Shown here piece after piece: positions 24,772 to 25,302 of a stretch of 64,000 nt of DNA. Under the pieces are notes generated by a model that saw only the letters and a list, made by a program, of their open reading frames with translations, ran no database searches and was not told the DNA's origin. The stretch is from the sequence record PQ657772.1. One strand, given 5' to 3'. This stretch comes from Escherichia phage EC.P1. Each line of letters opens with the position of its first letter. The first letter of the stretch is position 1. A program made the translations under genes and the position numbers.

Positions 24772-25302
24772 GGACTTTTAATATTGACGGGATTTGAGGA
24801 AGGGATTTTTCTTCCCCCCGCACGGAGGGAAATTTGACGCTGATGGTATCAGAGCTATTGCATTGAAGATTACTCATAACGAGTGCGAAAGCGGGTCATC
24901 CTGTTTCTCTCTACTTCAGTTTCATATGACGGTCTACACTTTTAAACATAGTGTATCTTCATTAAGTATCTATGCAATCAAATACTTAATGTGAGTACTC
25001 AAATTTTGGACGCAACTTTCCTGTACAAAATTCGATAACTCTCCCTTAGATAATTCGTAAGGTGTTATCCTTATATGTCTATCGAGGAACCACCAGCTAT
25101 CCTAACGTGGTTCTTTATACAGCCGCATTGCCGTGAGGGGTTCAAACTATGCCCACATCTAACGGGTTTCTTTTGCTGTTCGCTACAATGAAAAGCTCAT
25201 CTATCCTTTACATTTTCAAGTGAAGTAGGGGAAGATTGTCAGTACCAGTACTGTCATTGTGATTGTACATAGATCATTGTATCACCATTAATAAATTTGT
25301 CC
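24772..25302 (-). other. ORF-free, relatively GC-rich structured region (candidate non-coding RNA)
   Basis: About 530 bp with no credible ORF on either strand, locally GC-richer than flanks, several GNRA-type hairpins (e.g. GCGAAAGC). Confidence 0.3.

Follow-up and report, generated by a model that had tools for sequence, protein, structure and literature searches.

What does a jumbo coliphage encode in some 530 nucleotides (nt) that hold no credible open reading frame (ORF)? The question is raised by positions 24772-25302 of a 64,000-nt stretch of DNA from Escherichia phage EC.P1 (sequence record PQ657772.1), which was analysed over its full length and is called the window here. An earlier note, made from the sequence alone, had described this region as enriched in guanine and cytosine (GC) and had offered a structured non-coding RNA, an intron or origin remnant or a decayed gene as explanations. 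Conservation, nhmmer searches and covariation show the region to be an intact, conserved minus-strand gene (24784..25270) for a predicted pseudoknotted non-coding RNA of about 490 nt, present in multiple copies and equipped with a promoter. By analogy with the GOLLD and ROOL RNAs, the transcript may act in trans as a folded particle.

Conservation and copy number

The window was 99.8% identical to the Asteriusvirus jumbo coliphages Ecwhy_1 and fEgEco12 (121Q/PBECO4/Rak2-like group). Positions 24774-25230 aligned with 68-74% nucleotide identity over about 450 nt to jumbo phages of other genera; the aligned relatives were Pectobacterium phage CBB, Cronobacter phage GAP32, Serratia phage BF, Yersinia phage fHe-Yen9-04 and Erwinia phages, and further Salmonella phages 7t3/Munch, Klebsiella phage fENko-Kae01 and Xanthomonas phages XbC2 and XaC1. 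The match in the relatives always fell within a gap of ~600 nt, unannotated or filled with tiny dubious ORFs, and the neighbouring genes differed. Because the flanking protein genes were unalignable at the DNA level, the non-coding stretch is the best-conserved DNA of the locus. Full-length relatives were recovered by nhmmer with E-values of 1e-48 to 1e-147. A degenerate 22-nt pattern, taken from the block with the highest conservation, matched 31 loci in IMG/VR, and a second pattern search yielded additional copies. In the collections searched, all matching Rak2-like jumbo-phage genomes carried the family (61 phage records); the plasmid collection gave no match. In almost all deposited genomes the RNA gene is unannotated. 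Short coding sequences of 32-60 amino acids labelled 'hypothetical protein' overlie it in several of them (loci L002, 2247-2692, phage WPEC3; L006; L011; L013) and are probably spurious calls.

Complete genomes carried at least three full-length, diverged copies by nhmmer and 3-5 matching places by blastn; the window carries one copy. The four places per record seen in the first blast were in part a repeated terminator and not extra RNA copies. In phage 121Q, copies were located at 90.3, 192.8 and 326.6 kilobases (kb), all on the same strand, and CBB, BF and Yen9-04 had three full-length copies each. Spacing was roughly even in Asteriusvirus (102, 134 and 112 kb) and uneven among the copies located in BF (at about 30, 93 and 335 kb). 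The duplications are old, because orthologous copies retain their neighbours across genera whereas the neighbours of paralogs differ. Homologous HNH homing-endonuclease genes were found ~0.4-1.3 kb from RNA copies of different paralog groups (window 23449-24333; loci L028, L034, L035, L062, L072 and L093); the RNA genes may serve as targets for homing, or the proximity may be accidental.

Covariation and predicted fold

An earlier set of 13 orthologs, folded with RNAalifold, gave many helices with compensatory changes. For the covariation analysis, column pairs were ranked by mutual information in an alignment of 41 non-redundant sequences, and a simple helix finder was then applied. The named structure comprised 12 helices with 65 pairs in total; three of the helices are pseudoknotted. 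Paired cells amounted to 98.6% of 2545, compared with 73.9% in 500 shuffles (0/500 reached the real value), and the paired fraction fell to 35-41% when the 3' partners were slid by 1-3 columns. The alignment for covariation, which the earlier note had proposed as a check, thus revealed compensatory changes on both sides in 53 of the 65 pairs; cells with double changes numbered 603, with 164 expected. As a control for deriving and counting the structure on one alignment, the helix finder was rerun with shuffled column order; it returned 0-2 helices, as compared with 14 on the real alignment. Taken together, the alignments show sequence and predicted fold (at least 12-15 helices including three pseudoknots) to be under purifying selection in Asteriusvirus, Mimasvirus, Eneladusvirus, Munch/7t3-like and Xanthomonas jumbo phages.

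Read from its 5' end on the minus strand, the predicted RNA starts with a 5' domain (25185..25260) in which an 8-base-pair (bp) helix joins 25260-25253 to 25191-25185; two hairpins lie within the domain, one variable and one with GAAAAUGUA as its conserved loop. The 3' strand of this helix (25191-25185) is situated inside the loop of the hairpin 25196-25194/25184-25182, forming pseudoknot 1; in these helices 1 and 2, both sides had changed in 8/8 and 2/3 pairs, respectively, and 95-100% of cells were paired. The following domain (25119..25179) is closed by helix 3, ACAGC/GCUGU (25179-25175 with 25123-25119; 3/5 pairs compensatory, 100% paired), and contains the invariant stretches AGAAACCCGUUAG and CACGGCAAUGCGGC. 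The hairpin GAACC(AC)/(GU)GGUUC (25087..25113, helix 4) comes next, with compensatory changes in 5/5 core pairs, up to four pair types per position and 100% of cells paired. A hairpin UAAG/CUUA (25058..25073, helix 5) is preceded by the invariant GAUAGACAUAU. The helix GAGU/ACUC (24993..25041; 25041-25038 with 24996-24993), returned by the helix finder, surrounds a hairpin (25032-25026 with 25008-25002) capped by a 17-nt loop that is conserved and reads UACAGGAAAGUUGCGUC in the window copy and UACAAUAUAGAUCCGUC in most relatives; in the alignments, this hairpin module takes a different peripheral position in some paralogs.

The 3' domain (24857..24991) contains helices 6-12 from the mutual-information ranking, with 96-100% of cells paired and both-side changes in 33 of 40 pairs. 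It is composed of a hairpin (24991-24986/24965-24960 continued by 24984-24980/24971-24967) whose loop 24978-24972 covaries with 24863-24857 over 7 bp (pseudoknot 2), a hairpin at 24956-24953/24937-24934, pseudoknot 3 between GUCAU (24930-24926) and AUGAC (24899-24895), the two helices that pseudoknot 3 crosses (24918-24914/24868-24864 and 24911-24907/24891-24887) and a hairpin at 24884-24882/24874-24872. Long invariant single-stranded stretches lie between the helices; conserved unpaired stretches in loops and junctions are, in addition to those named above, UAAGGGAG, CGACCGUUG and ACAACCCGC. Large RNAs with a conserved three-dimensional core typically combine helices, invariant single strands and a variable periphery.

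Local helices had been noticed earlier. The 7-bp stem GAACCAC/GTGGTTC is real and corresponds to helix 4. A supposed GNRA hairpin, GCGAAAGC, was misread: the transcribed strand is GCUUUCGC, the CUUUC of which pairs with GAGAG 20 nt upstream (helix 11). The helices had moreover been described on the plus strand, whereas promoter, G·U bias and terminator site place the RNA on the minus strand.

Promoter, strand and transcript ends

The RNA gene promoter (25276..25304, minus strand) consists of a -35-like TGGGACA (25304-25298), a 16-nt spacer and the extended -10 box TGATACAAT (25284-25276). Among the 41 relatives, the -10 columns T32, T35, A36, A38 and T40 were invariant and G33, T37 and A39 were conserved in at least 90%, giving a near-invariant TGnTATAAT in RNA orientation in 41/41. 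Judged from the -10 box, the 5' end of the RNA would be at about 25270 ± 2. The motif TGnTAYAAT occurred 38 times in the window with 15.5 expected (0/100 shuffles reached 38), 30 of the 38 sites being on the minus strand (e.g. 39226-39234 and 41740-41748); two sites were directly upstream of transfer RNA (tRNA) genes. The -35 box is TGAAAC(G/C) in the Mimasvirus and Eneladusvirus copies, and a -35 box of the TGAAAC type has been described in the 'divergent RpoD-like promoter' of phage CBB, chiefly in front of genes for DNA synthesis (PMC5259590).

The minus strand is favoured by four findings: the promoter; an excess of G·U over A·C of 33:5 on that strand in helices picked without strand bias; a hairpin with U-run at one fixed site, after the repeat R1 described below, in 16 of the 41 relatives, with no consistent site on the opposite strand; and an RNAalifold consensus energy of -68.9 kcal/mol on the minus strand versus -51.1 kcal/mol on the plus strand. 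The 7t3 copy has a terminator of its own, and the genes downstream of the RNA in 7t3 and XaC1 are oriented towards it. A hairpin with U-run also separated the -10 box from the RNA body in about 11 of the 41 relatives (L025 at about 8000-8050; L017, L014, L073, L027, L015, L007, L071 and L037), a paralog group in which the end of the upstream gene falls inside the promoter. This element may stop upstream transcription, or may attenuate or stabilise the RNA.

The 3' module

A common layout followed the folded body in all relatives: repeat R1 (AYCA-N-YGUCAR), an optional terminator, a GC hairpin (UUUCAUyCCCC-loop-GGGGGGAUGAAA) and repeat R2 (AYC-N-YGUCAR). On the minus strand of the window, R1 (AUCAGCGUCAA) is at 24834..24844, and it is directly followed by the hairpin and U-run in the 16 relatives mentioned. 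The GC-rich hairpin UUUCCCUCC-GUGC-GGGGGGAAGAAA (24808..24832) is conserved in all relatives, with G500-G502 invariant and a G6 run in its region, and R2 (AUCCCGUCAA) occupies 24784..24793, position 24784 being the downstream limit of the conserved block. The two direct repeats co-varied with identical bases at three or more positions (TT 30/CC 11; CC 38/TT 3; GG 27/AA 10); the rare core changes of CGUCA to UGUCA or CGACA occurred in both repeats of one copy. Versions of R1/R2 differed between copies of one genome, and XaC1 showed the same match of R1 with R2. By mutual information in the 41-sequence alignment, no column was in Watson-Crick covariation with R1 or R2, and a pattern search for complements of R2 found no excess over chance in the window. 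The 3' tail was considered as a promoter of the next gene and rejected; a separate promoter or a TGAAC-type -35 box comes after the tail. The module could be a processing or protein-binding site, a site at the DNA level or part of a switch.

Copies in bacterial chromosomes

A full-length copy, from promoter to tail, was detected in the chromosome of E. coli LR-29-1 (nhmmer E = 1.7e-121). E. coli EEC_W5 gave the same partial blastn match; these two were the matches among 5426 complete E. coli genomes, and one strict pattern matched 3 of 185,579 species representatives. Serratia sp. 2723 has a full-length copy directly after a large serine recombinase and near chromosomal genes, a metagenome-assembled genome (MAG) of Enterobacteriaceae has a copy between thiM and a CI-like repressor, and Serratia sp. 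L9 has a partial copy. The modules are located at L084 5772-6452 (E. coli LR-29-1, NZ_AP027515.1), L082 5282-5932, L079 6373-7064 and L081 3493-3893, all full-length except that in L081. The LR-29-1 copy lies within an island of ~10.5 kb between ffs and ybaA, which also carries a tyrosine integrase split by IS3, hypothetical proteins and a resolvase. Beside the RNA copy PADLOC reported the candidate defence system PDC-M45 (DuOB, DUF488, DUF4326), and the copy adjoins a protein with a weak PDC-M01B match. Downstream of the island copies, 0.7-1 kb were without genes. Two island proteins were tested and had no jumbo-phage homologs; the RNA module therefore moves independently. Shortly before the island RNA (L084 5201-5481) come two duplicated segments: 165 bp of the ffs/integrase junction in inverted orientation (99.4% identical) and 140 bp of the ybaA-side boundary (98.6%). 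These suggest that two insertions occurred in tandem or that part of the island was inverted.

Coding potential and neighbouring genes

The GC content of 24772-25302 was 0.394, compared with 0.348 for the window and 0.361 and 0.374 for the 1-kb flanks; equal or higher values were reached in only 6% of windows of 531 nt, and the GC enrichment is borne out. Four ORFs of 66, 38, 43 and 34 amino acids are contained in the stretch. None had a match in Pfam or PHROGs, the two collections searched, whereas all four flanking genes did, and across the 41 relatives the longest ORF varied from 41 to 98 amino acids, differing between relatives. The absence of a credible ORF can accordingly stand. That this was also the largest such stretch in the window holds at a threshold of 70 amino acids (gap 24473-25338); at 60 amino acids the 66-residue ORF 24794..24994 on the plus strand splits the gap, and 40977-41772 becomes the largest.

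Along the minus strand the local order is sigma-factor gene, ORF-free stretch, two small conserved genes and HNH endonuclease gene. The sigma-factor gene (25339..26307, phrog_351 match) is upstream of the stretch and ends in a sequence-predicted intrinsic terminator (GGGUUGAC-UUCG-GUCAGCC with U-run, about 25306..25332), which is the upstream boundary of the RNA unit. On the other side, a promoter scan located a separate, near-consensus sigma-70 promoter (TTGACA-17-TAGAAT, 24743..24771) that serves the downstream genes from 24678..24469 onward and is outside the RNA family. The flanks described at the outset, a sigma-factor terminator (~25332-25306) and a minus-strand promoter (24771-24743), were thereby recovered. 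The small genes (24678..24469 and 24472..24245) matched phrog_37707 and phrog_28392, and the HNH gene (23449..24333) lies downstream of them.

The ~30-nt terminator hairpin GGCTGACCGAAGTCAACCC with its T-run is repeated eight times on the minus strand of the window (blastn within the window: 4841-4868, 5424-5457, 10047-10074, 10728-10758, 12805-12833, 13591-13621, 17183-17209 and 25307-25340). A TGnTATAAT box abuts the repeat at 4833, 5416, 10039 and 17175, giving repeated terminator-promoter cassettes.

Comparison with known RNAs

Rfam, which the earlier note had named as a place to look, contained no matching family. With all 4227 covariance models of Rfam 15, the window yielded only five tRNAs at the gathering threshold; at E<=10, three chance-level matches to unrelated families were obtained in 24500-25500, and in nine relatives no match recurred inside the element. 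ARAGORN called no tRNA or transfer-messenger RNA gene in 24300-25700, and the group I/II intron models (RF00028, RF00029 and related) gave no match at E<=10. Two resemblances to ribozymes were tried and discarded. A hammerhead-like reading of CAGAUGA-stem-GAA failed on the unconserved equivalents of U4 and A6 and on a hairpin loop that is engaged in a pseudoknot, and an RNase P P4-like reading of AGAAACCCGUUAG failed on a partner that is local (ACGG) and on the lack of an Rfam match. No description of the element was found in the literature searched, nor is it mentioned in the genome papers of fEgEco12, UE-S1 and CBB. A 2023 screen of viral structured RNAs reported motifs of 67 nt on average (PMC10690425), and this set may hold fragments of the family. 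The family is absent from Rfam 15 and is a new family within a known kind, the large ornate non-coding RNAs of phages.

The nearest members of this kind are GOLLD and ROOL (RF01998 and RF03087), which likewise measure several hundred nucleotides, combine many covarying helices with pseudoknots and with conserved nucleotides at junctions, form a transcription unit of their own in phages or prophages and have a variable periphery. The present RNA resembles them in kind (~490 nt, 12-15 helices, three pseudoknots) but has no sequence or structure match to either, even at E<=10. It differs further in not being placed beside tRNA genes (the nearest is 12 kb away), in its three or more ancient, diverged copies per genome with co-varying twin repeats around a GC hairpin, and in being limited to Rak2-like gammaproteobacterial jumbo phages and rare chromosomal islands. 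GOLLD and ROOL cages form via homo-oligomeric kissing loops, whereas here the covariation of 24978-24972 with 24863-24857 fits intramolecular and homo-oligomeric pairing alike.

More distant parallels were also drawn. ColE1 RNA II is a promoter-driven non-coding transcript of ~550 nt in which the fold is important and a G-run has been linked to formation of the hybrid, and T4 has several origins per genome (oriF/oriG), each with a middle-type promoter. The likeness consists in a promoter that drives a non-coding transcript; the present RNA lacks homology to these, an RNA I-like antisense promoter and a skew or orientation signature, and its fold is far more complex. The immunity RNAs of P1/P7 (c4) and P4 (CI) are also structured, flanked by direct repeats, located in non-coding regions of mobile elements and found in chromosomes; their repeats are complementary to RNA loops, whereas no complementary partner was found for R1/R2, and the RNA body here is about six times larger and has no match to the Rfam C4 family. 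The large non-coding RNAs of lytic phages, namely the long non-coding RNAs of PA5oct (ncRNA001-004) and the ~800-nt RNA of ICP1, were defined by RNA sequencing, are ORF-free and ~0.25-0.8 kb long and, where measured, were among the most abundant transcripts (PMC7318152, PMC7567579). They are defined by expression and have no structural model, whereas the RNA described here is defined by covariation; nhmmer detected no homology to PA5oct ncRNA001 or ncRNA002 (first 30 kb of the PA5oct genome).

Mode of action

The structured non-coding RNA offered by the earlier note has strong support from conservation and covariation. As to its function, action in trans in the form of a folded particle, comparable to GOLLD and ROOL, is favoured with a probability of roughly 0.6, because conserved unpaired stretches occupy loops and junctions, the peripheral hairpins are variable and one module is mobile. 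Neither an antisense regulator nor a leader fits this pattern of conservation. Host RNA polymerase would transcribe the RNA from about 25270, using the promoter type of the phage tRNAs; in CBB-like phages, the TGAAAC -35 box would link the RNA promoter to the DNA-synthesis genes. The transcript would then fold into a compact pseudoknotted core with peripheral hairpins that vary and one module that shifts position, and the folded particle might serve as a ribonucleoprotein (RNP) scaffold or as a ribozyme- or aptamer-like core, as proposed for GOLLD and ROOL. The 3' module, with R1, optional terminator, GC hairpin and R2, would probably make or process the 3' end or bind a factor. That the unit is independent is indicated by the convergent genes in 7t3 and XaC1, by the terminator of the 7t3 copy and by the occurrence of the whole module in chromosomal islands that lack protein genes of jumbo phages.

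Several observations weigh against this reading. The RNA is predicted from sequence and covariation, and the helices were derived from the alignment that was also used for counting, a point addressed by the column-shuffle control. The z-score of the single-sequence minimum free energy was weak, the plus strand (-2.9) scoring slightly better than the minus strand (-1.5), and certain invariant helix extensions are G·U if read on the plus strand. The window copy has no canonical terminator, and its transcript could read through to the next promoter. In the neighbour comparison, no protein gene was linked to all paralog groups; only synteny within orthologs and the recurrent HNH genes were seen. 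A purely trans-acting folded RNA predicts neither the GC hairpin and R2 beyond the terminator in 16 copies nor the same-base co-variation of R1 with R2.

This last observation bears on two rivals, which stay live because of the module past the terminator, the promoter of the DNA-synthesis type and the repeated capture by islands, although each is unlikely. If each copy were an origin, a promoter-driven, folded pre-primer RNA of ~500 nt might form a lasting hybrid with DNA near the G-rich 3' module and prime the leading strand, on the model of ColE1 RNA II and of the middle-promoter transcripts at T4 oriF/oriG. R1/R2 would then resemble iterons, and the presence of the module in islands would let an infecting phage amplify them. 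Several dispersed copies per genome, a promoter of the type reported upstream of the CBB DNA-synthesis genes, a conserved G6/C-run hairpin and twin repeats that behave like DNA sites, the capture of the complete module by integrative islands at least three times, and the genes for endonuclease VII and a recombination endonuclease that adjoin the 7t3 and XaC1 copies would all suit an origin. However, no inflection of GC skew or switch of gene orientation was present at the element, no promoter-like site for an antisense regulator of the RNA I type was found on the plus strand in 24400-25600, the even spacing of copies was confined to Asteriusvirus and lost in BF, a terminator upstream of the G-run would halt most transcripts short of it, and three pseudoknots with about 15 covarying helices exceed known priming needs. 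Of the earlier proposal of an origin remnant, the remnant is contradicted by an intact, multi-copy and widely conserved gene, and the origin is retained as a rival. No more probable is an immunity or anti-defence RNA that binds and titrates a specific phage or host factor, for instance a protein of transcription, replication or defence, whether island copies exclude jumbo phages or phage copies neutralise a host defence. The E. coli island copy beside PDC-M45 with the weak PDC-M01B match, the Serratia copy after its serine recombinase and the MAG copy abutting a CI-like repressor agree with this, as does an extended -10 promoter that requires no phage factor and could be constitutively expressed from islands; the repeat-hairpin-repeat layout would recall the immunity regions of P1 c4 and P4 CI (in part PMC7567579). 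But R1/R2 had no complement within the RNA, complements in the window did not exceed chance, Rfam C4 did not match, chromosomal copies are rare in the counts given above, and the adjacency to defence genes in one island is perhaps coincidence.

A cis-acting leader, that is, a riboswitch- or attenuator-like element or a processive antitermination site that governs read-through with the terminator after R1 as the regulated step, is very unlikely, because some copies face convergent genes, leaving nothing to regulate. The window copy, without terminator and co-oriented with 24678..24469, would suit such a leader, as would a terminator after a large conserved fold in 16/41 relatives and a hairpin and U-run right after the -10 box in about 11/41; a hairpin followed by a C/A-rich conserved stretch may be loosely reminiscent of boxB-boxA antitermination sites. 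Yet in 7t3 and XaC1 the RNA is directed at the 3' ends of the convergent genes, the downstream genes differ among paralog groups with no gene family following all, a separate strong promoter precedes the downstream genes in the window and in relatives, and the island copies are followed by the gene-free 0.7-1 kb. A remnant of a protein gene, of a group I/II intron or of another mobile element is scarcely credible. HNH genes at ~0.4-1.3 kb from copies of several paralog groups, including 23449..24333 in the window, and the movement of the module between phages and islands might suggest it, but every genome keeps the element at full length and under selection. An intron is contradicted by the intergenic position of the element, between the sigma-factor terminator and an independent promoter, by a promoter of its own and by neighbour genes that differ between genomes, and no Rfam intron model matched at E<=10; a decayed gene is contradicted by internal ORFs without a Pfam or PHROGs match and by a longest ORF that varies among relatives.

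Beyond action as a folded particle, it is conceivable, though doubtful, that the RNA gene represents a new class of ornate RNA in a self-contained, horizontally exchanged module made up of promoter, pseudoknotted core of ~0.45 kb, terminator and repeat-hairpin-repeat tail. Jumbo phages would need the module in several copies, and bacteria or their integrative islands would have captured it repeatedly, to block these phages by an RNA decoy or immunity or to be replicated by them through a hijacked origin; R1/R2, with their same-base co-variation, would then be a new kind of paired recognition site.

Other features of the window

An element of ~85 nt (41548-41634) lies beside a tRNA-Ser gene in a 796-nt ORF-free gap. 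It was 82-90% identical to many unrelated phages (Felixounavirus, Klebsiella and others), in some of which it is labelled tRNA-OTHER, tRNA-Undet or tRNA-Arg; neither ARAGORN nor Rfam called it in the window. In the ORF-free gap 48987-49504, ~70 nt (49190-49258) share about 80% identity with T5-like phages of Salmonella and Escherichia, in which they are part of 'hypothetical protein' annotations, and a perfect TTGACA-17-TATAAT promoter is present at 49032-49004 on the minus strand. At 39124-39215 ARAGORN called a tRNA-Ser with the unusual anticodon ACT.

Significance

Structured RNAs with comparable covariation are rare, and most have proved to be ribozymes, riboswitches or RNP cores; GOLLD, ROOL and OLE have attracted cryo-electron microscopy for their architecture. 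The present family is set apart by its ancient paralogy, its co-varying twin repeats and its island copies. Its hosts include phages under therapy development against E. coli, Salmonella, Klebsiella, Erwinia and Xanthomonas. With E. coli hosts, a length of about 490 nt, three pseudoknots and at least 41 diverse sequences, the RNA is a tractable system, and the chromosomal island copies and the paralogs with and without terminators are natural experiments that make its function directly testable.

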